From assembly GCA_030390025.1 (NCBI GenBank), contig CM059452.1, positions 10,044,001 to 10,108,000 on the forward strand: 64,000 bases of DNA, written 5' to 3'. Shown one piece after another: positions 11,930-63,810 of the stretch. How positions within the stretch are numbered: position 1 is the stretch's first letter; each line of letters begins with the position of its first letter. A program made the translations under genes and the position numbers. The stretch comes from Squalus acanthias (taxonomy: Eukaryota). Below the pieces are notes generated by a model. That model was given only the letters and a program-made list of their open reading frames with translations. It was not told where the DNA came from and made no database searches.

Positions 11930-12510
11930 GGGTGGGCCTTTATTACAAGAGGATTTGAGTACGTTATATATCCAAGTTTTTTAAATGGTGAGAGATTGGG
12001 AAATGTTGGTGTTCAGAGGGACCTGGGTGTCCTTGTACACGAATCGCTGCAAGTTAACATGCAGGTACAGCAAGCAATTAGGAAAGCAAATGGTATGTTG
12101 GCCTTTGTTACAAGAGGATTTGAGTATAAGAGTAAAGACGTCTTACTGCTGTTATATAGGGCCCTGGTGAGACCACACCTGGAGTATTGTGTACAGTTTT
12201 GGTCTCCTTACCTAAGGAAGGATATACTTGCCATAGAGGGAGTGCAACGAAGGTTCACCAGACTGGTTCCTGGGATGGGGGGTTTGTCCTATGAGGAGAA
12301 ATTGAGTAGAATGGGCCTATATTCTCTGGAGTTTAGAGGAATGAAAGGTGATTTGATTGAAACATACAAAATTCTTACAGGGCTTGACAGGGTAGATGCA
12401 GGGAGGATGTTTCCCCTGGCTGGGGAGTCTAGAACCAGGGGTCACAGTCTCAGAATAAGGGGTCGGACTGAGATGAGGCCCACTCCTGCTCCTATTTCTT
12501 ATGTTCTTAT
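11930..12510 (+). mobile_element. CR1 3' fragment, internally deleted
   Basis: RDLGV and RPHLEYCVQFW motifs, ttcttatg tail; inverted duplicate at 34654-35230. Confidence 0.85.
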
Positions 12511-12930
12511 GAACCAGTGAGTGTAGAACTGAACCCAGCCAGAGTCAGCACCTTCAGGGGAGGAGAGGGAGGGGAACCAGTGAGAGTGTAACTGAACCCA
12601 GCCAGAGTCAGCACCTTCAGGGGAGGAGAGGGAGGGGAACCAGTGAGTGTGGAACTGAACCCAGCCAGAGTCAGCACCTTCAGGGGAGGAGAGAGAGAGG
12701 AACCAGTGAGTGTAGAACTGAACCCAGCCAGAGTCAGCACCTTCAGGGGAGGAGAGGGAGGGGAACCAGTGAGTGTAGAACTGAACCCAGCCAGAGTCAG
12801 CACCTTCAGGGGAGGAGAGGGAGGGGAACCAGTGAGGGCAGAACTGAACCCAGCCAGAGTCAGCACCTTCAGGGGAGGAGAGGGAGGGGAACCAGTGAGT
12901 GTGGAACTGAACCCAGCCAGAGTCAGCACC
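12511..12930 (+). repeat. 63-bp minisatellite, ~6.7 units, just upstream of the ZNF exon splice acceptor
   Basis: Unit gaaccagtgagtgtagaactgaacccagccagagtcagcaccttcaggggaggagagggaggg; acceptor ttttacag near 12997. Confidence 0.95.
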
Positions 12931-13360
12931 TAGAATTGTCTGTTCCGATTTTCTATCCTTGCTTTGCAATGATGACTTTTGTAAACTCCTTTTACAGGCT
13001 GTGAGAAAGGCAGCATTTACGGAATGCAAGCTCAAACCAAACATCACATCAAGATCTGACAGAGTCACTCCATTCATCAGGACCCGAATATCATCAGCCT
13101 TTGAATGTGGAAGGAGAAATGTTTGTCTGTTATGTCTGTGGTAAAAGATTTCAAACATCAGTGTGACTGGAAAAGCACCGAGACACACACACCCGAGTGA
13201 GAGTGTTCCAGTGCACTGACTGTGGAAAGAGCTTTAACCAGTTACACAGCCTGAAAAAAGTCGCATCATTCACTGTAGGAAGAAACCGTACACGTGTTCT
13301 GTGTGTGGACGAGGCTTCAACTGATCATCCAAGCTGGAGAGACACAAGAACACCCTCACC

Positions 13361-14203
13361 ATGGAGAAACCGTGGAAATGTGGGGACTGTGGGAAGGGAT
13401 TCAATTACCCGTCCCAACTGGAAACTCATCGGCGCAGTCACACTGGGGAGAGACCCTTCAGTTGCTCTCACTGCTTGAAGACTTTCAAAGAATCATCAAA
13501 CCTGCTGAAACACCAGCAAGTTCACACTGGGGAGAGGCCGTTCACCTGCTCATTGTGTGGGAAGGGATTTTCTGAATCCAACCACCTGCTGACACACCAG
13601 CGAGTTCACAGTGACGAGAGACCGTTCAGGTGCTCTCACTGTGCAAAGACATTTGCCCACTCATCCAACCTACTGAAACACCAGCGAGTTCACACCAGGG
13701 AGAGGTCGTTCACTTGCTCCGTATGTGGGAAGAGATTCACTCGTTCATCCAATCTGTTGACACACCAGCGAGTTCACACAGGGGAGAGGCCGTTCACCTG
13801 CCCTGTGTGTGGGAAAGGATTTGCTCATTCTTCCCATCTGCAGACACACCAGCGGGTTCACACTGAGGAGAAGCCGTTCACCTGCTCTGAGTGTGGGATG
13901 AGATTCACTCAGTCATCCAACTTCCGGACACACCAACTTGTTCACACAAATAAGAGACCTTTTAAATGTTCTGAGTGTGAGAAGTGCTTTAAAAGCACAA
14001 AGGATCTGCTGACACACCAGCGAATTCACACTGGGGAGAGGCCGTTCACCTGCTCTGAGTGTGGGAAGGGATTCACTAATTTATCCAACCTGCGGACACA
14101 GCAGCGAGTTCACACTGGGGAGAGGCCGTTCACCTGCTCTGAGTGTGGGAAGGGATTCACTCAGTCGTCCAACCTGCAGACACACCAGCGAGTTCACAAG
14201 TGA
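13361..14203 (+). CDS. KRAB-less C2H2 zinc-finger protein, 10 fingers (one with His-to-Gln)
   Basis: 280-aa [13 protein letters not shown]... with Kozak caccATGg; upstream degenerate fingers 13119-13360 carry two TGA and a 1-nt frameshift. Confidence 0.85.
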
Positions 14204-21249: not shown

Positions 21250-21560
21250 GTTGGGTCGTCCTGCGCATGTGCACCTCCCTGGCGGCTGAGGTGAAACACC
21301 GACTCGCCCCCACCTGAGCCGCGCACACGTACCAGATGTTGCGGCTCCGCATGCGCGCCCGATGTTCCAACCGCGGGGTTTTGTGCGCTGAGCATGCGCG
21401 TTGTGGACTGATCGGGACGGGTGATTGTGGAGCAGGAGGGAGAGCGCGGGGGCCATGAGCACATGGGCGGGACTCAGAGTCAACAGAGCGCTTTCTGGAG
21501 CGCCGGGGCTTGTGGGTATTACAGCCGCCATTACTGCTGATCCTTTCAACCAACCTGTGC
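21250..21560. promoter_or_regulatory. CpG-rich promoter-like region upstream of a ZNF gene
   Basis: Several GCGCATG/GCATGCGC NRF1-like motifs, a GC box and gccgccat. Confidence 0.55.
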
Positions 21561-21770
21561 AGCAGCTGGAGCCTGAAAATCAGCTTCACTGCCCCTAGGT
21601 TCGGAAAAGGGAAAATTAAACAACAATTTGCCTCTGATCCTTTTCTAAACTCATTTTACAGGGTTATAGAAGTGGAGCAGTTACAGGCGGGAAGCTCAGA
21701 CCAAACAACACGTCAAGATCTGACAGAGTCGCTCGATTCATCCGGACCTGAACATCATCGGCCTTTGCAC

Positions 21771-22988
21771 ATGGAAGGAGAAAGCAGCGATCGCAGCGAT
21801 GACAAACCGCACAGGTGTTCGGTGTGTGGACGCGGATTCAGCCGATCGCCTGACCTGGCGAGACACGTGCACCGTCACACCGGGGAGAAACCGGGTAAAG
21901 GTGGGGACGGTGGGAAGGGATTCAGTTCCCCGTCTGCAATAGAAGTTCAACGGCGCAGTCACACCAGGGACAGTCCATTCACCTGCTCCGTGTGTGGAAA
22001 GGGATTTGTTTGTTCATCCCACCTGCAAACACACCAGCGAGTTCACACTGACGAGAGACCGTTTCAGTGTTCTGACTGTTGGAAGAGCTTTAAAAGCCCC
22101 CAGGATCTGAAGGGACACCAGCTTGTTCACACTGATGAGAGACCATTTCAGTGTCCTGACTGTGGGAAGAGCTTTAAAAGCCCCCAGGATCTGAAGGGAC
22201 ACCAGCGAGTTCACACTGATGAGAGGCCGTTTAACTGTCCTGACTGTGGAAAGATCTTTAAAAGCTCCGGGGATCTGAAGAGACACCAGCTTATTCACAC
22301 TGCGGAAAGGCTGTTCACCTGCTCCGTGTGTGGGAAGGGATTCTTGCAGTCCTGCAACCTGCTGAGACACCAGCTTGCTCACACTGATGAGAGACCATTT
22401 AACTGTTCTGACTGTGGGAAGAATTTTAAAAGCCCCCGGGAGCTGAAGGGACACCAGCTTGTTCACACTGATGAGAGACCCTTTAAATGTTCTGACTGTG
22501 GGAAGAGCTTTAAAAGCTCCGGGGAGCTGAAGAAACACCAGCTTGTTCACACTGACGAGAGACCCTTTAAATGTTCTGACTGTGGGAAGAGATTTAAAAG
22601 CTCCCAGGAGCTGAAGAGACACCAACACCTATACACTGGGGAGAGACCGTTCACCTGCTCAGTGTGTGGGAAGGGATTCACTGAATCATCCACCGTGCTG
22701 ACACACCAGCTTGTTCACACTAACGAGAGACCCTTTAAATGTTCTGACTGTGGGAAGAGATTTAAAAGCTCCGGGGAGCTGAAGAAACACCAGCGAGTTC
22801 ACACTGGAGAGAGGCAGTTCACCTGCTCAGTGTGTGGGAAGGGATTCATTAAGTCATCCACCCTCCTGTCACACCAGCTTGTTCACACTAACGAGAGACC
22901 CTTTAAATGTTCTGACTGTGGGAAGAGCTTTAAAAGCTCGAAGAGCCTTAAGGGACACCAGCGTCTTCACACTGATCACAGAATCTAA
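21771..22988 (+). CDS. C2H2 zinc-finger protein, 13 intact plus 1 degenerate finger
   Basis: Uninterrupted frame; splice acceptor ttttacag near 21661; first in-frame ATG at 21771 (cacATGg); the stop comes from an adjacent antisense CR1 tail. Confidence 0.85.
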   Translation: MEGESSDRSDDKPHRCSVCGRGFSRSPDLARHVHRHTGEKPGKGGDGGKGFSSPSAIEVQRRSHTRDSPFTCSVCGKGFVCSSHLQTHQRVHTDERPFQCSDCWKSFKSPQDLKGHQLVHTDERPFQCPDCGKSFKSPQDLKGHQRVHTDERPFNCPDCGKIFKSSGDLKRHQLIHTAERLFTCSVCGKGFLQSCNLLRHQLAHTDERPFNCSDCGKNFKSPRELKGHQLVHTDERPFKCSDCGKSFKSSGELKKHQLVHTDERPFKCSDCGKRFKSSQELKRHQHLYTGERPFTCSVCGKGFTESSTVLTHQLVHTNERPFKCSDCGKRFKSSGELKKHQRVHTGERQFTCSVCGKGFIKSSTLLSHQLVHTNERPFKCSDCGKSFKSSKSLKGHQRLHTDHRI

Positions 22989-24660: not shown

Positions 24661-24844
24661 GGAGAGAATCTTGGCAATTTCTATCCTGGACTCTCAGTCA
24701 TGGCTTTTGGAAACTCCTTTTACAGGCTGTGAGAAGGGCAGCATTTACACACCGCAAACTCAAACCAAACATCACATCAAGATCTGAGAGTCACTCCATT
24801 CATCAGGACCCGAATATCATCGGCCTTTGAATGTGGAAGGAGAA

Positions 24845-25428
24845 ATGTTTGTCTGTTCTGTCTGTGGGGAAAGATTTCAAACATCAGTGTGACTGGAAAA
24901 GCACCGAGACACACACACCCGAGTGAGAGTGTTCCAGTGCACTGACTGTGGAAAGAGCTTTAACCAGTTACACAGCCTGAAAAAACATCGCACCATTCAC
25001 AGCGGGGAGAACCTGTACACGTGTTCTGTGTGTGGACGAGGCTTCAACTGATCGTCCAACCTGGAGAGACACAAGGACACCCACACCACAGAGAAACCGT
25101 GGAAATGTGGGGACTGTGGGAAGGGATTCAATTCCCCGTCCCGGCTGGAAATTCATCGACGCAGTCACACCGGGGAGAGGCCGTTCACCTGCTCCATGTG
25201 TGGGAGGGGATTCACTCAGTCATCCCACCTCGCTACACATCAACTTGTTCACACTGATAAGAGACCATTTAAATGTTCTGACTGTGAGCAGAGCTTTATA
25301 AGCACAGCTGATCTCCTGAGACACCAGCGTATTCACACTGGGGAGAGGCCGTTCACCTGCTCCGTGTGTGTGGGAAGGGATTCACTCGGTCATCCCACCT
25401 GCTGACACACCAGCGAGTTCACAGGTGA
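24845..25428 (+). pseudogene. C2H2 zinc-finger pseudogene, ~7 fingers
   Basis: In-frame TGA at 24890 and 25049, ACA instead of ATG at the EKPW linker, 2-nt insertion near 25368. Confidence 0.75.
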
Positions 25429-33117: not shown

Positions 33118-33876
33118 TCACTTGTGAACTCGCTGGTGTGTCCGCAGGTTGGACGACTGAGTGAATCCCTTCCCACACTCAGAGCAGGTGAACGGCCTCT
33201 CCCCAGTGTGAATTCGCTGGTGTGTCAGCAGATCCTTTGTGCTTTTAAAGCTCTTCTCACACTCAGAACATTTAAAAGGTCTCTTATTAGTGTGAACAAG
33301 TTGGTGTGTCCGGAAGTTGGATGACTGAGTGAATCTCATCCCACACACAGAGCAGGTGAACGGCCTCTCCCCAGTGTGAACTCGCTTGTGTGTCAGCAGG
33401 TTGGATGAACGAGTAAATCTCTTCCCACATACGGAGCAAGTGAACGACCTCTCCCTGGTGTGAGCTCGCTGGTGTGCCAGCAGGTTGGATGAATGAGTGA
33501 ATCTCTTCCCACAAACGGAGCAAGTGAACGATTTCTCCCTGGTGTGAACTCGCTGGTGTTTCAGTAGGTTGGATGAGTGGGCAAATGTCTTTGCACAGTG
33601 AGAGCACCTGAACGGTCTCTCGTCACTGTGAACTCGCTGGTGTGTCAGCAGGTGGTTGGATTCAGAAAATCCCTTCCCACACAATGAGCAGGTGAACGGC
33701 CTCTCCCCAGTGTGAATTTGCTGGTGTTTCAGCAGGTTTGATGTTTCTTTGAAAGTCTTCAGGCAGTGAGAGCAACTGAACGGTCTCTCCCCAGTGTGAC
33801 TGCGTCGATGAGTTTCCAGTTGGGACGGGTAATTGAATCCCTTCCCACAGTCCCCACATTTCCACGGTTTCTCCGT
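33118..33876 (-). CDS. C2H2 zinc-finger ORF, 9 fingers, ACG in place of the start ATG (non-AUG start or pseudogene)
   Basis: Open frame from caccACGg (33876) to TGA (33118); paralog of 13361-14203. Confidence 0.6.
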
Positions 33877-34296
33877 GGTGCGGGTGTCCTTGTGTCTCTC
33901 CAGGTTGGACGATCAGTTGAAGCCTCGTCCACACACAGAACACGTGTACGGTTTCTCCTACAGTGAATGATGCGACTTTTTTCAGGCTGTGTAACTGGTT
34001 AAAGCTCTTTCCACAGTCAGTGCACTGGAACACTCTCACTCGGGTGTGTGTGTCTCAGTGCTTTTCCAGTCAAACTGATGTCTGAAATCTTTTACCACAG
34101 ATAAACATTTCTCCTTCCACATTCAAAGGCCGATGATATTCAGGTCCTGATGAATGAAGTGACTCTGTCAGATCTTGACGTGATGTTTGGTTTGAGTTTG
34201 CGGTGTGTAAATGCTGCCCTTCTCACAGCCTGTAAAAGGAGTTTGCAAAAGTCATCATTGCAAAGCAAGGATAGAAAATCGCGACAGACAATTCTA

Positions 34297-34653
34297 GGTG
34301 CTGACACTGGTTGGGTTCAGTTCTACACTCACTGGTTCCTCTCCCTCTCCTCCCCTGAAGGTGCTGACTCTGGCTGGGTTCAGTTCTACACTCACTGGTT
34401 CCCCTCCCTCTCCTCCTCTGAAGGTGCTGACTCTGGCTGGGTTCAGTTCTAAACTCACTGGTTCCTCTCCCTCTTCTCCCCTGAAGGTGCTGACTCTGGC
34501 TGGGTTCAGTTCTACACTCACTGGTTCCCCTCCCTCTCCTCCCCTGAAGGTGCTGACTCTGGCTGGGTTCAGTTCTGCACTCACTGGTTCCTCTCCCTCT
34601 CCTCCCCTGAAGGTGCTGACTCTGGCTGGGTTCAGTTCTACACTCACTGGTTC
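34297..34653 (-). repeat. 63-bp minisatellite, ~5.7 units
   Basis: Reverse complement of the 12511 unit, one unit shorter. Confidence 0.95.
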
Positions 34654-35451: not shown

Positions 35452-35560
35452 ATTTATCCTCCATTGACAGACGCTCCCTGACCAGTCACCATTTCTCCTC
35501 CATTGACAGACGCTCCCTGACCAGTCACCATTTCTCCTCCATTGACAGACGCTCCCTGAC
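35452..35560. repeat. 39-bp tandem repeat, ~2.7 units
   Basis: Unit atttctcctccattgacagacgctccctgaccagtcacc. Confidence 0.85.
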
Positions 35561-35631
35561 TTCCTGTCTGTCCCGGAGTTTGGCGCGGGGCCCCTTTGCT
35601 GAGCGAATCGGGAGAAACCGGGAAGCGGCGG

Positions 35632-36083
35632 GCGGAAAATGTTGAGTGTTTTAATAATGGGGCCTGGGGCCTGGGGCCGCACTCGGGGTGTGTGCAGCCC
35701 GCGTCCCCCCGGGGTTTATTAACCCGCTCCCTGAGCTCTCTCACCTGATGTGTCAGCGGCTGCTGCCAAGGTCCGCGCATGCTCAGCTCACACTGCCCGG
35801 GTGATTGACGGGGGCTCCGGACCAATAGGAAGAGCGGGGCGGGACTGGAGGACCGAGCGTGCGGCGGGTCCTCCAACCAATCGGAGTGTGTGAGGGGCGG
35901 GGCTTGACCTTTAAACCTGAACAACAGAAGGTGAGCTGAGCATGCGCGGACCTTGGCAGCAGCCGCTGACACATCAGGTGAGAGAGCTCAGGGAGCGGGT
36001 TAATAAACCCCGGGGGGACGCGGGCTGCACACACCCCGAGTGCGGCCCCAGGCCCCATTATTAAAACACTCAACATTATCCGC
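35632..36083. promoter_or_regulatory. Bidirectional CpG-island promoter flanked by ~155-bp inverted repeats
   Basis: Arms 35632-35791 and 35931-36083; spacer holds CCAAT and GC boxes; each arm has an outward-facing cag|gtgaga donor; lies between divergent ZNF genes. Confidence 0.75.
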
Positions 36084-37313
36084 TTCACAAACACCCGGGG
36101 TGGGCCTCAGGCCCCGAACAAGAGCCTCCGGGCCGGGCGTTTGCCCCGAGCGGGGCGGCAGCTGCGGGGCTTTCTCCCGGTGACAGGCCCGGGTTAACGG
36201 CCGCCATCTTGACAGGCTCAGGGGGCAGCAGGGCGCATGCGCGGCCCCCTTGGCCAGGAACCAGGAGGAGAGAATCTTGTCAATTTCTATCCTGGACTCA
36301 CAGTCATGGCTTTTGGAAACTCCTTTTACAGGCTGTGAGAAGGGCAGCATTTACACACCGCAAACTCAGACCAACAACAACAACTTACCTTTATATAGCA
36401 CCTTTAAAATGTCACAGTAGCGCAGTCAGACAATAATCGACACACATACTTTGTTTGTGGTCCAGTGCACTGACACAAAGTTCCTTCACAACTGTAACAA
36501 TTTTATTGCGGTTGCTGTGAAGGCTGCGCTCACTCTGCTCGTACACCTGGTCTCCAAAGGAGGCAAAACAGGACTAATGCTGCCGAGCTCAGCTCTTTTT
36601 GATCAGAAAATATCAACTGTTTCACCTCAGCCAGGAAATGCACAAAAGAGGCAGCAGTGCTCATTGGCTGCCCAGGAAAGTCCTATTTAGATTAAACTCC
36701 TTCACCCAGAGAGTGCTGAGAATGTGGAACTTGCTGCCACAGGGAGTAGTTGAGGCGAAGAGCAGGGATGCATTTAATGGGAAGCTGGATAAACACATGG
36801 GAGAAAGGAATAGAAGGAGATGCTGATAGGGTGAGATGAAGAGAGATGGGAGGAGGCTCGTGTGGAGAATAAACACCGCATGGACCAGTTGGGCCGAATG
36901 GCCTGTTTCTGTGCTGTACAATCTATGTAATTCTATGTAATAAGAGAGGAAAGAATGTTCCATAGAAACTAGAATTATCTGTTCTGCATTTTAATCCTGA
37001 ACTTATAGTGATGTATTTTGTTATCTGCTTTTACAGGGAATATCATCGGCCTTTGAATGTGGAAGGAGAAATGTTTGCCTGTTCTGTCTGTGGGAAAAGA
37101 TTTCAAACATCAGTGTGACTGGAAAAGCACCGAGACACACACACCCGAGTGAGAGTGTTCCAGTGCACTGACTGTGGAAAGAGCTTTAACCAGTTACACA
37201 GCTTGAAAAAACATCGCACCATTCACAGCGGGGAGAAACCGTACACGTGTTCTGTGTGTGGACGAGGCTTCAACTGATCGTCCAACCTGGAGAGACAGAA
37301 GGACACCCACACC

Positions 37314-38072
37314 ATGGAAAAACCGTGGAAATGTGGGGACTGTGGGAAGGGATTCAATTACCCGTCTGAGCTGGAAATTCATCAACGCAGCCACACTGGG
37401 GAGAGGCCGTTCACCTGCTCCCTGTGTGGGAAGGGATTCACTAACTCCTCCAGCCTCGCTGCACACCAACTTGTTCACTCTAATAAGAGACCATTTAAAT
37501 GTTCTGACTGTGAGAAGAGCTTTAAAAGCAGAAAGCATCTGATGAAACACCAACGCACTCACACCAGGGAGAGGCAGTTCACCTGCTCCGTGTGTGGGAA
37601 CAGATTCACAAATTCATCCAACCTGCTGATACACCAGCGAGTTCACACTGGGGAGAGGACGTTCACCTGCTCTGTGTGTGGGAAGGGATTCACTCAGTCA
37701 TCGAACCTGCTGACACACCAGCGAGTTCACACTGGGGAGAGGCCGTTCACCTGCTCCGTGTGTGGGAAGGGATTCGCTTCTTCATCCCATCTCATTGAAC
37801 ACCAACTTGTGCATTCTGATGAGAGACCTTTTAACTGTACTGACTGTGAGAAGAGCTTTAAAAGCAGAACTGCTCTGTTGCAACACCATCACACTCACAC
37901 CCCACAGAGACCATTTGCCTGCTCTGTGTGTGGGAAGGGATTCACTCGATTATCCACACTGCTGAGACACCAGCGAGTTCACACTGGGGAGAGGCCGTTC
38001 ACCTGCTCCGTGTGTGGGAAGGGATTCACTCAGTCATCCCACCAGCTGAGACACCAGCGAGTGCACAAATGA
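37314..38072 (+). CDS. C2H2 zinc-finger protein, 9 fingers
   Basis: 252-aa ORF; three further in-frame fingers upstream (ATG 37071) are broken only by TGA at 37116 and 37275; acceptor near 37036. Confidence 0.85.
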
Positions 38073-38228
38073 CTGCAGGGGTTGGATTCTGCTGTTATTG
38101 CTGCTGTTAATCACATCCAGGACTGAACCCTGTTCACTCTAACAGTCGGGGTTTGTTTCTGCTGATGTTAATAACTCCTGTAACTGGGCTGGAGTTTTAA
38201 TACTCTGGATAGATGTCAAATAAATCAG

Positions 38229-38343
38229 AAATAAAAACAGAAAATGCTGGAGAAACTCAGCAGGTCAGGCAGCAACTGTGAAGAGAGAAACAGCGTTAAC
38301 GTTTCAGGTCGATGACCTTTCGTCAGAACTCATTTCGTCAGAA
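38229..38343 (-). mobile_element. Penelope terminal-repeat fragment with hammerhead motif (38294-38330), inserted at the ZNF poly(A) signal
   Basis: Reverse complement of 21114-21215; flanked by a 12-bp direct repeat caaataaatcag (38217-38228 and 38344-38355). Confidence 0.75.
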
Positions 38344-38772
38344 CAAATAAATCAGCTTTGTTTTAAACACATTGTTGTAGATTTTTGTCTTTCCCACCTG
38401 AGTGTTTAGCATCACCTGGCTGGAGCTCAGAAAGGACAATCTGGGGGAGGATCGTACGGCGGGAACAGAACTTCAGCCTGGACACAGTCCTTCAGGGCCA
38501 CACTGAGAGGGGCAAACGGCACTTTGGTCTTTCTCGTCTCTCTTCACTGACAGCAAAGGCCCCGTGTGGGTTAATCTCGAGGCGTGTGAGAAACGTGTCC
38601 CAGCCGCTCTCTGCCATGGTTCAGAGCTCCTAGGCACGGAACAGAAGGCTCCTTTAGGAATGTACCCCAGTGCTTTTTTTTAATGGCCTTATTAACGTGT
38701 GTCGCTACTTTTAGTGATTTGTGTATCTGTATCCCTGGATCCCTCTGCTCCTCCAGCCCATTTAGACTCTTA

Positions 38773-39420
38773 GGGGGAAAAATTCGGTGGCGCCCCCTTT
38801 GGGTCGCTAACGTCGCCGGGGCTAATTTTAGCGCCCCGAAAAAGTTAGCGCCCCTGCACATTAAATTCAGTGGTAGCGCCCCAAGCAGGAGGCGGGGTGC
38901 TACTGGAAGCGCTCCCCTCCCTCTTGAGGCGCTACCAGTGAATTTCGCGGCGCTTCGTGCAACAGCGCCACGCCCGTCGGCACATAGCACCGTGTCATAG
39001 CAGACCTCCCTCCCTGATTAAAGGGGAGGGGCCTAGCACTGCTCACACCGGGGCCCTGCTGGACCACCGGGGAGCGGGGTGTCGGATCAAGAGGAGCGCC
39101 GGGCTGAGCGATCGCGGCCGACACCCCGAAGAAGAAAGGGGAAGGGGGCAGGTGCTGGCAGTCGGCCAAAATAAAAAGTTGCCGCCCGACACCTGCCCTT
39201 TAAGTGGCGCCGCCGCGGCTGCAGGAACGACCCCTGACCCTGTCGGACATATCGTCCGGCGATAGGTCAGGGGTCGCAACCCAAGGTTGCAGCCGGGGTG
39301 CTGCGCATGGCGATGACGTCATTGCCGGCGGTGCAGTGCCGTGGGGCGCTACCGGCTACCGCCACCGCTAACCTCCCGCTGAATATCGCAGGAGGCACAA
39401 AGCAACCCAATTTCACCCCC
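38773..39420. mobile_element. Non-autonomous DNA transposon (PIF/Harbinger-like MITE) inserted in an old minus-strand CR1 (~38655-39770)
   Basis: Imperfect TIRs gggggaaaaattcggt / acccaatttcaccccc, 3-bp flanks TTA/TTG, CpG-rich non-coding interior; CR1 sequence resumes on both sides. Confidence 0.65.
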
Positions 39421-39788
39421 TTGTTGTCCAAGTAGTGAGTGGCCTCCTTATTCTTCCCACCAAAACACACCACCTCACACTGATCTACAGTGAAATTCAT
39501 TTGCCAATTACACGCACATTCTGAAATTTATTAATGTCTTCTTGCATTTTGTCTTCCTCAGTATTAACTCTACCTCCCAATTTGGTGTTATCGACAAACT
39601 TTAAAAATTGTACTTTCAATTCCCGAGTCCAAATCGTTTCTGTAAATGGTGAACAACAGTGATCCCAGCACCGATCCCTGTGGAACACCACTTCCCACCT
39701 TTTGTCAGTCTGAGTAGCTACTCCCAACCCCTACTCTCTGTTTCCTGTTCTGTGACCAGCTTGCTATCCATAACAGTTTGTAAGATCG

Positions 39789-39963
39789 ACAAGATGACCA
39801 AGGTCAGGCCGTGTGGAGTGAAGGGCCAGGCAGCAGAATGGATGGAAAGATGGCTACAAAACAGAAATCAGAGGGTTGGAGTTAAGGGAAGTTTGTAGCG
39901 ATCTTTCCATCCATTCTGCTGCCTGACCTTTGACTCCACACGGCCTGACCGTGGTCATCTTGT
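39789..39963. repeat. ~72-bp inverted repeat derived from a CR1 fragment
   Basis: Arms 39789-39860 and 39892-39963 with a few mismatches. Confidence 0.85.
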
Positions 39964-40439
39964 AGACCGTACATACTGCAGACACAGTGCACCAGTGGTG
40001 GAGGGGGTGGATATTGAGTCCTGTGGCAGGGGCGCTGATGAAGTGGATTTCTCTGTCCGTGAGTTTTGAGGCATCGCTAGTGGCGTTTTTCACCTCTTTC
40101 CACCTTTAAAAAAAACCTTGCTGCCAGTTTATTAAAGCCATTAACAGCCGCTCGGGTGGGACACACCAATAAATGAGGCCTCGTAAGTTTCCCTCAGAAT
40201 GACAGGCCTGAACCCGAGTTAGAAAACATTTAGTAATTAAACCAGACTGGGCGGGGCCTGAGGTGTGAGTTAGTAACGGAAAATTGGCGGCCAGCGTACT
40301 TCACACCAGGGCTGAGGACCCGGGGACTCGGGTTTCTGTATCATTTATTGATTAATTTTGTTTATTGCCCAATCTCAATCAGACTGGCGGGTCATCTTGC
40401 CGTCTGGCGGAGGCGAGGTTCCCCAATGGAGGGCTCTCT

Positions 40440-42329: not shown

Positions 42330-43088
42330 TCACTTATGAACTCGCTGATGTTTCAGCAGGTTGCATGATAGACTGAATCCCTTCTCACACACGGAGCAGG
42401 TGAACGGCCTCTCCCCAGTGTGAACTCGCTGGTGTGTCAGCAGATTGGATGAACGATTGAATCCCTTCCCGCACAAGGAGCAGGTGAACGGCCTCTCCCC
42501 AGTGTGAATTTGCTGGTGTGTCAGCAGGTTGGATGAACGATCAAATCCCTTCTCACACACGGAGCAGGTGAACGGCCTCTCCCCAGTGTGAATTCGCTGG
42601 TGTGTCAGCAGGTGGGATGACCGAGTGAATCCCTTCCCACACACAGAGCAGGTGAACGGCCTCTCCCCAGTGTGAACTCGCTGGTGTGTCACAAGCTCGG
42701 ATGAATAAGCAAATCCCTTCTCACACATGGAGCAGGTGAACGGCCTCTCTCCGGTGTGAACTTGCTGGTGTGTCAGCAAGTGGGATGACCGACTGAATCC
42801 CTTCCAACACACGGAGCAGGTGAACGGCCGCTCCCCAGTGTGAACTTGCTGGTGCAGAATGAGGTTGGATGACTGCTTGAATCTCTTCCCACAGTGAGTG
42901 CAGCTGAATGGTCTCTCATCAGTGTGAACTCGCTGATGTGTTTGGAGAATGGACGAGCGAGTGAATCCCTTCCTACATATGGAGCAAGTGAATGGCCTCT
43001 CCCCGGTATGACTGCGCTGATGAATTTCCAGTTGGGACGGGTAATTGAATCGCTTCCCACAGTCCCCACATTCCCACGGTTTCTCCGT
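42330..43088 (-). CDS. C2H2 zinc-finger ORF, 9 intact fingers, ACG in place of the start ATG
   Basis: Open frame from caccACGg (43088) to TGA; upstream in-frame ATG at 43331 with TGA at 43286 and 43127; region 43010-44030 is an inverted duplicate of 36380-37400. Confidence 0.7.
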
Positions 43089-44586
43089 GGTGCGGGTGTC
43101 CTTGTGTCTCTCCAGGTTGGACGATCAGTTGAAGCCTCGTCCACACACAGAACACGTGTACGGTTTCTCCCCGCTGTGAACGGTGCGATGTTTTTTCAGG
43201 CTGTGTAACTGGTTAAAGCTCTTTCCACAGTCAGTGCACTGGAACACTCTCACTCGGGTGTGTGTGTCTCGGTGCTTTTCCAGTCACACTGATCTTTGAA
43301 ATCTTTTCCCACAGACAGAACAGGCAAACATTTCTCCTTCCACATTCAAAGGCCGATGATATTCCCTGTAAAAGCAGTTTACAAAAGACATCACTGTAAG
43401 TTCAGGATAAAAATGCAGAACAGATAATTCTAGTTTCTATGGAACATTCTTTCCTCTCTTATTACATAGAATTACATAGATTGTACAGCACAGAAACAGG
43501 CCAATCGGCCCAACTGGTCCATGCGGTGTTTATGCTCCACACGAGCCTCCTCCCATCTCTCTTCATCTCACCCTATCAGCATCTCCTTCTATTCCTTTCT
43601 CCCATGTGTTTATCCAGCTTCCCCTTAAATGCATCCCTGCTCTTCGCCTCAACTACTCCCTGTGGCAGCAAGTTCCACATTCTCAGCACTCTCTGGGTGA
43701 AGGAGTTTAATCTAAATAGGACTTTCCTGGGCAGCCAATGAGCACTGCTGCCTCTTTTGTGCATTTCCTGGCGAGGCGAAACAGTTGATATTTTCTGATC
43801 AAAAAGAGCTGAGCTCGGCAGCATTAGTCCTGTTTTGCCTCCTTTGGAGACCAGGTGTACGAGCAGAGTGAGCGCAGCCTTCACAGCAACCGCAATAAAA
43901 TTGTTACAGTTGTGAAGGAACTTTGTGTCAGTGCACTGGACCACAAACAAAGTATGTGTGTCAATTATTGTCTGACTGCACTACTGTGACATTTTAAAGG
44001 TGCTATATAAAGGTAAGTTGTTGTTGGTGTATAGAGTACTCTGTTAAATTTAGTGAAATGATCGATAACCAAGGAAGATCATTTCTTTGTTTGGTTCTGT
44101 TAGTTTTCATAGATTCATGGAAAAGTACAGCACCAAGGAGGCCATTCGGCCCATCGTGCCTGTGCTGGCTCTTAGAATGAGCAGTCGTGCTTAGTCCCAC
44201 ATCCCTGCTTGTTGTCCGTAACCCTGTAAATTCCTCATCCTCAAGTACCCGCCCAACTCCCTTTTAAAATCATTGATGGGATCAGCTCATGACCTTTTCA
44301 GGTAGAGCGTTCCCGATCCCGACAACTCTCTGAGTTTTATTCAATTGTTGCCACAGTTGCCTTCTGTGAAGGTTTAATATTAAATACATTTTGCTGTGAA
44401 AGCAATTAAAACATTTCCAGTATATAAATAGACAGATGCATCAAAATATTAAAATTGTGGGAGGGAGGGCAGTGCTCGCCCAGGGCCCAAAAAACAACGG
44501 AATTCTTGTTTCCCAACCCAATGTTTAGAAGATGAAGTCCCAGAGCTGCCTCTGGCTCGGTTGCCCTATTCTGACAAGCTGAGGTG

Positions 44587-62741: not shown

Positions 62742-62846
62742 GTAAGCATGAGTCCAATCATGTCGTGTTCAAACTAAAGTGTTAATATTATTTCACTAAC
62801 ACCATTTGATACTTGATCTTATCTTGTGCCTGAACACATGTTACAG

Positions 62847-63156
62847 ATCAGAGTGATGGAGATTCTGTTACTCAGTCCCAGTCTTCAGTGATCATCAGAG
62901 AAGGTGAAGCGCTGACTATAAGATGTACCTATAGTACCGCAGCCAACTACTATTATTTATATTGGTACCGGCAGCAGCCAGAGAAGGAGCCCCAGTTTGT
63001 TGTGTGGAGACGGTCTTCGGACACACGGAAAGAGAATGGAGAAGGTTTCAGACGCCGTTTTTATGCAGAGCTCCAGACCTCGACTAAATTCATCAGTTTA
63101 ACCATCTCGGGGCTGCAGCTGACTGACGCTGCCGTGTATTACTGCGCCCTGAGACT
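62847..63156 (+). CDS. T-cell receptor alpha/delta-type variable gene segment (V exon)
   Basis: DSVTQ...LTIRCTY...LYWYRQ...LTISGLQLTDAAVYYCALR V-set hallmarks, in frame with the leader, no stops. Confidence 0.9.
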
Positions 63157-63195
63157 CACAGTGATGGAAAGCAGTCTCAGCCCTGTACAAAAACT
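63157..63195 (+). promoter_or_regulatory. Recombination signal sequence, 23-bp spacer
   Basis: CACAGTG + atggaaagcagtctcagccctgt (23 nt) + ACAAAAACT. Confidence 0.95.
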
Positions 63196-63439
63196 GCCAA
63201 TGGACTGTAGGGCTAAGCTCCTGTCTGTTGAGGTTGTGTGGAATCGCGGCAGATGCAGCCACAATGTGCAGCGCGCTGTCAGGCGCTCAAACACACGCCG
63301 AGAGGAAACCAAATTAACCTCGGATCAAACTGTCATCCAACTGTTTCCAGGAGCGGCCGAGAAAACAAACAGCAGAATCCAATCGGCCCGAAAGATCGAT
63401 CACAGAATGAACCGACCGGTTAAACTGTCCTTTCTGGTT

Positions 63440-63810
63440 TGATCTTTAGACGTAGAGAAGATGTTTCCACTTGCGTGCAAGACAAGAACACGAGGCCATG
63501 AATTAATCACTGATAATTCCAAAAAGGGAATTCAGGTGAAACCTCTTTACCCAGAGAGGGGTTAGAATGTGGAACTCGCTCCACTGGGAGTGGTTGAAAC
63601 AAATCGGAAGATTCGAGTCATCCTTACCGGCAATAAATAGAATGGATTCATTTAAGCTGATGCTCGGTAAGCACATTAGGGAAGAAAGGAACAGAAATAT
63701 ATGTTGATGCGGTTAAATGAAGCGGGATGGGAGGACGCTCGTGTGGAGCATAAACACCGACACGGACCTGTTGGGCCGAATGGCCTGTTTCTGTGCAGTA
63801 AATACTTTCT
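63440..63810 (+). mobile_element. Old CR1 3' fragment
   Basis: TRTRGH and FTQRGVRMWNSL remnants with a CR1-type 3' UTR. Confidence 0.7.

Follow-up and report, generated by a model that had tools for sequence, protein, structure and literature searches.

Paired in-frame TGA codons in a shark zinc finger subfamily are probably inherited stops in a three-finger leader without a coding signature

A 64,000-nucleotide stretch of the Squalus acanthias genome (the window, on contig C29 of the 3.71-Gb genome) contains C2H2 zinc finger (ZNF) genes in which a leader of three fingers, placed before the main finger array, is interrupted by two in-frame TGA codons. Both TGAs are very probably inherited stops, likely produced by CpG decay, and lie in a leader that resembles non-coding DNA, occurs in about 2,000 copies and likely forms an untranslated 5′ leader. 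This agrees with one of the options in the original prediction, namely that the copies descend from an already damaged ancestor.

Reading the codons in the window confirmed all ten predicted TGAs, at 13164 and 13322, 24890 and 25049, and 37116 and 37275 on the forward strand, and at 34072 and 33915, and 43286 and 43127 on the reverse strand. The leaders of the copies at 24845, 37071 and 43331 are in register and interrupted by the two TGAs alone, as had been reported. The leader of the 13.1-kb copy has one −1 indel, and that of the 34-kb copy has indels of −9, −1 and −1 together with a third stop. In standard C2H2 finger numbering the Leu is +4 and the His +7 of the helix, and by this numbering the stops do fall at recognition-helix positions +3 (TGA 1) and −1 (TGA 2). 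In the majority of copies the last His of finger 3 is missing (at codon 91 the majority has CGC, Arg), and in the 37-kb copy the first His is missing instead. The sharing of the leader by five copies is indeed not due to chance, but the copies are not five independent retentions: since the leader is present family-wide, they represent one inheritance.

In the 37-kb copy the sequence alone predicts a splice acceptor AG at 37035-37036 (+), and the exon would begin with the dead three-finger leader (37037..37313, +), which appears to change neutrally and is likely 5′ UTR. TGA 1 (37116..37118, +) lies in finger 1 and is fixed in about 98% of copies; TGA 2 (37275..37277, +) lies in finger 3 and is still polymorphic with CGA. 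The main ORF (37314..38072, +) starts with ATG and has nine C2H2 fingers. A second paralog (13086..14203, +) has a frameshifted leader, an open array and an ATG at 13361. At 24812..25405 (+) an in-register leader is followed by ACA at the start position and by an array that is broken after three fingers. The paralog at 33118..34141 (−) combines the frameshifted leader and third stop with ACG at the start position and an open array of nine fingers, and the one at 42330..43364 (−) has an in-register leader, a nine-finger open array and again ACG, its first Met being 120 codons in. Thus the array-start ATG is found in two of the five window copies (13361, 37314), and the other three have ACG, ACG and ACA. 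A divergent ZNF paralog (21459..22988, +) has an ATG of its own and a first finger that is intact, and its second site is CGA, as predicted. The ZNF copies stand among ORFs of the CR1-like LINE type. Beside the cluster, at 62834-63442 (+), there is an immunoglobulin V-set exon (Pfam E 1.5e-17) that ends in YYCAL and has a CACAGTG heptamer at about 63163; it is likely a T-cell-receptor or antibody V segment.

The absence of a coding signature in the leader was observed directly. In 11 independent paralog pairs pN/pS is 1.20 for the leader and 0.46 for the arrays, or 1.58 and 0.59 with kappa 3. Outside CpG sites the leader diverges by 1.9% at third positions and by 2.0% at first and second positions, and its changes in 158 copies are spread evenly across codon positions and affect Cys and His ligands. 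Among the distinct leader indels in these copies, 34/38 shift the frame. Genome-wide, 42 of the 43 copies with a length change of 1-5 nt in codons 38-55, between the stops, are frameshifted, alongside 1,413 copies in register. Additional stops occur at 10 other leader codons, and of the 37 variants that have a sense codon at site 1, not one of the 20 fetched stays open across the two sites. Among copies sampled by an anchor downstream of the two stops, 69/136 full leaders are otherwise broken, and open arrays follow 45/69 of these broken leaders and 34/67 of those in register. The original prediction had stated that a dN/dS near 1 and random frameshifts would argue against a coding role, and the leader has both. 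An apparent scarcity of frameshifts after stop 2, seen in the 158 copies, failed to hold genome-wide. In the arrays, purifying selection acts on the finger framework and variation falls at the contact residues; 81/146 arrays are open. When omega was calculated from distinct alleles of all copies except L040 and L041, it was 1.21 for the leader and 0.65 for the first array finger alone, a difference that is not significant (p=0.13).

The samples behind these numbers were drawn in different ways, and because paralogs share mutations the counts are not fully independent. Loci L001-L030 were chosen because they resemble the 37-kb copy, and the majority of the later ones by exact leader anchors, so that leader damage is understated; anchored sampling also lowers the measured leader divergence. 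Out of 171 distinct matches, 159 were full-length and retained, or 158 after de-duplication, and 42 of these 158 copies, being without a 3′ UTR match, were excluded from the array-intactness tables. The corrected sample was selected by an exact match to the start-region 31-mer within the contig range listed (99 ACG and 47 ATG copies), and 10 truncated leaders were omitted from its leader counts, giving the 136 above.

Copy number and codon states can be read directly from the genome. With exact flanks, a 24-mer search at site 1 finds 2,029 copies with any codon, of which 1,982 have TGA; the other 47 have TGG (18), TAA (10), TCA (7), AGA (4), TGC (3), CGA (2), TTA (2) and GGA (1). This variant rate of 2.3% is similar to that of neighbouring codons. 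A 33-mer at site 2 finds 861 TGA vs 167 CGA. Stop 1 would have been essentially fixed before the family expanded, with stop 2 segregating with CGA still. The leader is also found in runs under eight organism labels, with 62-95% of the sampled words present. The TGAs likely arose by deamination of CpG in arginine CGA codons, because CGA is present at both sites in the divergent pair L040 and L041 (84% identity) as well as at the second site of the 21.8-kb paralog, and because three other leader CGA codons have decayed to TGA in 14/453 cases. CpG decay had been proposed as the origin from the 21.8-kb paralog, and the divergent pair now strengthens that proposal. Arginine is common at finger contact positions. 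Among the copies with TGG at site 1, 10 of the 17 fetched (L163-L165, L167, L168, L170-L174) are 5′-truncated and have GC-rich DNA resembling a promoter joined on near finger 1; these ten are one rearranged lineage across many contigs. An isolated piece of the 5′ exon at L063:1300-1525 (G000:C13), which is missing the usual end of the intron and breaks off soon after TGA 1, may be a truncated retrocopy with the stop unedited.

The leader is uniform compared with the rest of the cassette. Across the same 79 genes, these being the copies with all segments (L031, L032, L040 and L041 excluded), diversity is 2.0% in the leader, 9.2% in the intron end, 3.4-6.6% in the 5′ part of the exon and 4.1-17.8% in the 3′ UTR. 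Low leader diversity fits a young or homogenised leader together with anchored sampling. Outside CpG sites the leaders differ from the family majority by 2.0%, in a star-like manner, and common leader variants have almost no linkage, a pattern that fits a burst from one founder and then, as we infer, recombination. The leaders would all go back to this burst and have changed since then about as fast as the DNA that flanks them, and the arrays would diverge, likely by finger shuffling and recombination. Leader and flank divergence are 1.9% vs 2.4% in 54 upstream pairs and 2.7% vs 2.0% in 30 downstream pairs. In close pairs the leader tracks its flanks about 1:1 up to 3% and reaches a plateau near 3% once the flanks exceed 4%. 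Variation along the leader is uneven (p=0.001, L040 and L041 excluded) with a minimum at codons 37-45, and there may be weak nucleotide constraint on the leader.

Programmed readthrough of both UGAs, by which three N-terminal fingers with variable base-contact residues would be added, is highly unlikely. Passages of Jungreis et al. (2016, PMC5100048) describe double readthrough in insects, and the leader resembles the readthrough genes treated there in having UGA stops, a C at +4 of the first stop and an in-frame continuation; its two stops also lie in frame and at contact positions. In those genes the region between the stops is biased towards synonymous change and free of frameshifts; the leader shows neither feature. 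The leaky UGA-C context put forward in the original prediction applies to TGA 1 and not to TGA 2, which reads UGA-U. Even the UGA-CUG context of stop 1 is merely the invariant leucine codon of the finger, because a stop at +3 necessarily precedes the invariant Leu codon CTG. Neither the identity nor the context of the stops is conserved above background: the 47/2,029 site-1 variants include the 10 TAA copies, site 2 is polymorphic and has TAA in 7/136 copies, and in finger 3 a zinc ligand is mostly missing. With no coding signature, a predominance of frameshifts and the extra stops at 10 other codons, the idea that readthrough or editing toggles three extra fingers is unsupported. Opening of the frame by A-to-I editing (UGA to UGG) or by selenocysteine insertion is exceedingly unlikely. 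UGA is a substrate for both, but the stops align with contact residues and not with Cys, no SECIS is present among the 9 Rfam matches (E<=1) of the region 35500-40000, and three presumed RNA runs (contigs, with RNA status guessed) contain no A>G at or above 2% at 37118 or 37277. The RNA check proposed earlier therefore found no UGA editing of at least 2%, at a resolution, that of contigs, at which rare editing may remain. Four runs have no variants of at least 2% at 37116-37118 or 37277. A C at site 2 makes up 2-6% in the three presumed RNA runs and 11% in the fourth run, which is of unknown kind; run X22 (organism J, raw DNA reads) supplied 6 partial reads. Leader depth is of the same order as that of the array start in the three presumed RNA runs, and no canonical splice joint removing the leader was seen among the best 15 of 26 joints listed and 3 others, in contigs from which proof is impossible. 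When the leader, read through with X at the stops, was used as a protein query, no match among those listed (120 of 126; 120 of 2,075), which were crowded by generic finger proteins, had >60% identity; this is weak evidence that an intact-leader protein is missing from the annotation.

It is also quite improbable that the leader is kept as a regulatory RNA or DNA element which damps the translation or stability of new ZNF copies and thereby aids the spread of the subfamily. Being the least diverse segment of the cassette, having an identical majority sequence under four organism labels and occurring in a horn-shark gene model, the leader could give this impression. However, close pairs diverge about 1:1 with their flanks, both upstream ATGs change at the background rate, there is no structure behind stop 1 (z −0.09) and no Rfam match lies within the gene. 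In addition, passages of PMC10587355 give a slow shark mutation rate of 7e-10 per base per generation, so a neutral leader 2% deep could be very old. Rfam matches near 38.9 and 39.8 kb were rejected as being below gathering thresholds and outside the gene.

Inherited stops in an untranslated leader would imply the following route to protein. Transcription would start at a GC-rich promoter and the transcript would be spliced into the finger exon. Two short upstream ORFs would be bypassed by ribosomes or would end their translation, and synthesis of the working protein would begin, in copies that have it, at the ATG immediately preceding the first intact finger. The out-of-frame upstream ORF (37057..37152, +; 31 codons) is that of the family majority sequence, and its ATG precedes by 14 nt the in-frame leader ATG, with which the other upstream ORF begins (37071..37118, +; 15 codons, ending at TGA 1). 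According to passages of PMC3105428, scanning can resume after short upstream ORFs. The earlier suggestion of a family-wide 5′ UTR with a 15-codon upstream ORF holds for the 5′ UTR and fails for preservation of the upstream ORF: upstream-ORF ATGs are not specially preserved, and that of the 15-codon ORF is altered in 16/158 copies, no less often than neighbouring codons. Tolerance of untranslated fingers may have a reason in the stalling of ribosomes on tandem fingers during translation that is reported in PMC11620358. At 35665..36057 (no strand assigned), between the head-to-head 34-kb and 37-kb genes, a perfect inverted repeat of 127 nt encloses a GC-rich core; the element is likely a shared promoter to judge from its layout. 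Among the matches listed, head-to-head pairs 1.3-3.3 kb apart recur along C29, which suggests an inverted-duplication unit with a symmetric promoter. In two inverted paralogs the intron immediately 5′ of the finger exon also holds tandemly repeated units of about 63 nt (12500-12930, 34300-34650).

The simple model of inherited stops does not explain the majority of ACG at the array start. Genome-wide ACG is found in 972 copies vs ATG in 398, about 70% of copies are without ATG, and open arrays are nearly as common behind ACG (53/99) as behind ATG (28/47). Near-cognate initiation at ACG or at an upstream CUG is possible. As an addition compatible with inherited stops, the ACG copies could be translated from a near-cognate codon with low output, which would rise when CpG decay makes an ATG; this is unlikely, if not strongly so. 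The candidate starts are the ACG itself, in ACC-ACG-G, and an in-frame CUG nine codons upstream, in AAC-CUG-G, both in a strong near-cognate context (−3 A, +4 G). Some 16 nt beyond the CUG a hairpin is predicted to begin (z −2.2), a spacing said in passages of PMC3105428 to favour non-AUG starts, and ACG makes up 73-83% of contig depth in the three presumed RNA runs. Decay is also milder in ACG arrays than in their own leaders, with CGA to TGA in 5/359 vs 11/255 cases (p=0.037) and zinc-ligand loss in 47/1,904 vs 49/986 (p=0.0006); in the first sample, ligand loss in fingers upstream of any Met was 3/700 vs 30/413 in the same leaders. On the other hand, ligand loss is lower in ATG copies (0.8%) than in ACG copies (2.5%), and the ORFs of ATG copies hold more fingers (6.9 vs 4.8, p=0.022). 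A further 60 ACG copies, taken by themselves, had as much nonsense decay in the array (4/221) as in the leader (2/122), and 19/60 arrays reached their natural end. Open arrays are also found behind ACA, ACC and AGG, no frameshift-free boundary follows the CUG or ACG (29/1,331 vs 43/1,456 upstream), and no compensatory pair in the hairpin is present among the five commonest states per pair. Because ATG and ACG differ in 8/36 close pairs and are unlinked to other variants, conversion events that toggle the codon, or repair from fingers that still work, could mimic the pattern and could explain the ACG data equally well. An ATG:ACA imbalance of 73:7 was rejected as a signal of selection, CpG at codons 61-62 being equally lopsided. 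The ACG codon is predicted to pair, as one hairpin arm, with the KPW codons downstream (window 43088-43060 (−); family codons 90-100). The ancestral linker has Gly at the ACG position, and judging by the sequence ACG may stem from templated quasi-palindrome repair.

Related sequences are found in gene models of the horn shark. The Heterodontus francisci model XP_067868056.1 holds a frameshifted copy of the leader, whose off-frame peptide implies T at site 2; site 1 is undecidable from the peptide. ZNF genes with an intact first finger in models from this species (an N-terminal gene and an internal segment, in P0244 and P0014) have the same linker and the same array start region, with an ATG before the intact first finger. 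The present subfamily departs from these genes by an insertion of two fingers at this place, by the two stops and by the GTG that mostly stands where they have the ATG. The subfamily belongs with the lineage-specific tandem C2H2 expansions, as canonical linkers, clustering and birth-and-death turnover are all found. Passages of Wells et al. (2023, PMC10547256) describe such expansions, the tetrapod KRAB-ZNFs and about 700 zebrafish FiNZ-ZNFs, with similar clustering, very high copy number, 28-residue fingers, canonical linkers, variable contacts on a conserved framework and many decayed copies. The shark genes differ in that the shared 5′ part consists of dead fingers and not of an effector domain, in their number of about 2,000 copies and in the fact that most of these are without an array-start ATG. 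Neither KRAB nor FiNZ was among the best 25 families for the finger exon, the part covered by this search, and even if one of them lay in upstream exons, stop 1 would uncouple it from the array. In human ZNF252, passages of PMC2865497 report eleven finger motifs in the 3′ UTR, likewise cut off by an in-frame stop; the shark fingers are instead 5′ of the ORF and amplified across a family, not confined to one gene. No description of this shark subfamily was found in the literature searched, and the matching passages of the whale shark genome paper (PMC8455134) do not cover it.

The outcome is mostly one of ordinary gene-family evolution, not of a recoding signal. In-frame stops that are shared by paralogs can mimic recoding when they are merely inherited, and a context that looks leaky can be the finger consensus. 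Sharks have here a very large ZNF subfamily, and the 5′ ends of its gene models are likely annotated wrongly. It is distinctly unlikely that this subfamily of about 2,000 genes has a default near-cognate start behind its leader of fossil fingers, with CpG mutation flipping copies between a weak ACG and a strong ATG. If the ACG majority were translated, this would mean non-AUG initiation in about 1,000 genes with the strength of the start set by CpG decay, and mutation would act as a volume control on new DNA-binding proteins throughout the gene family.
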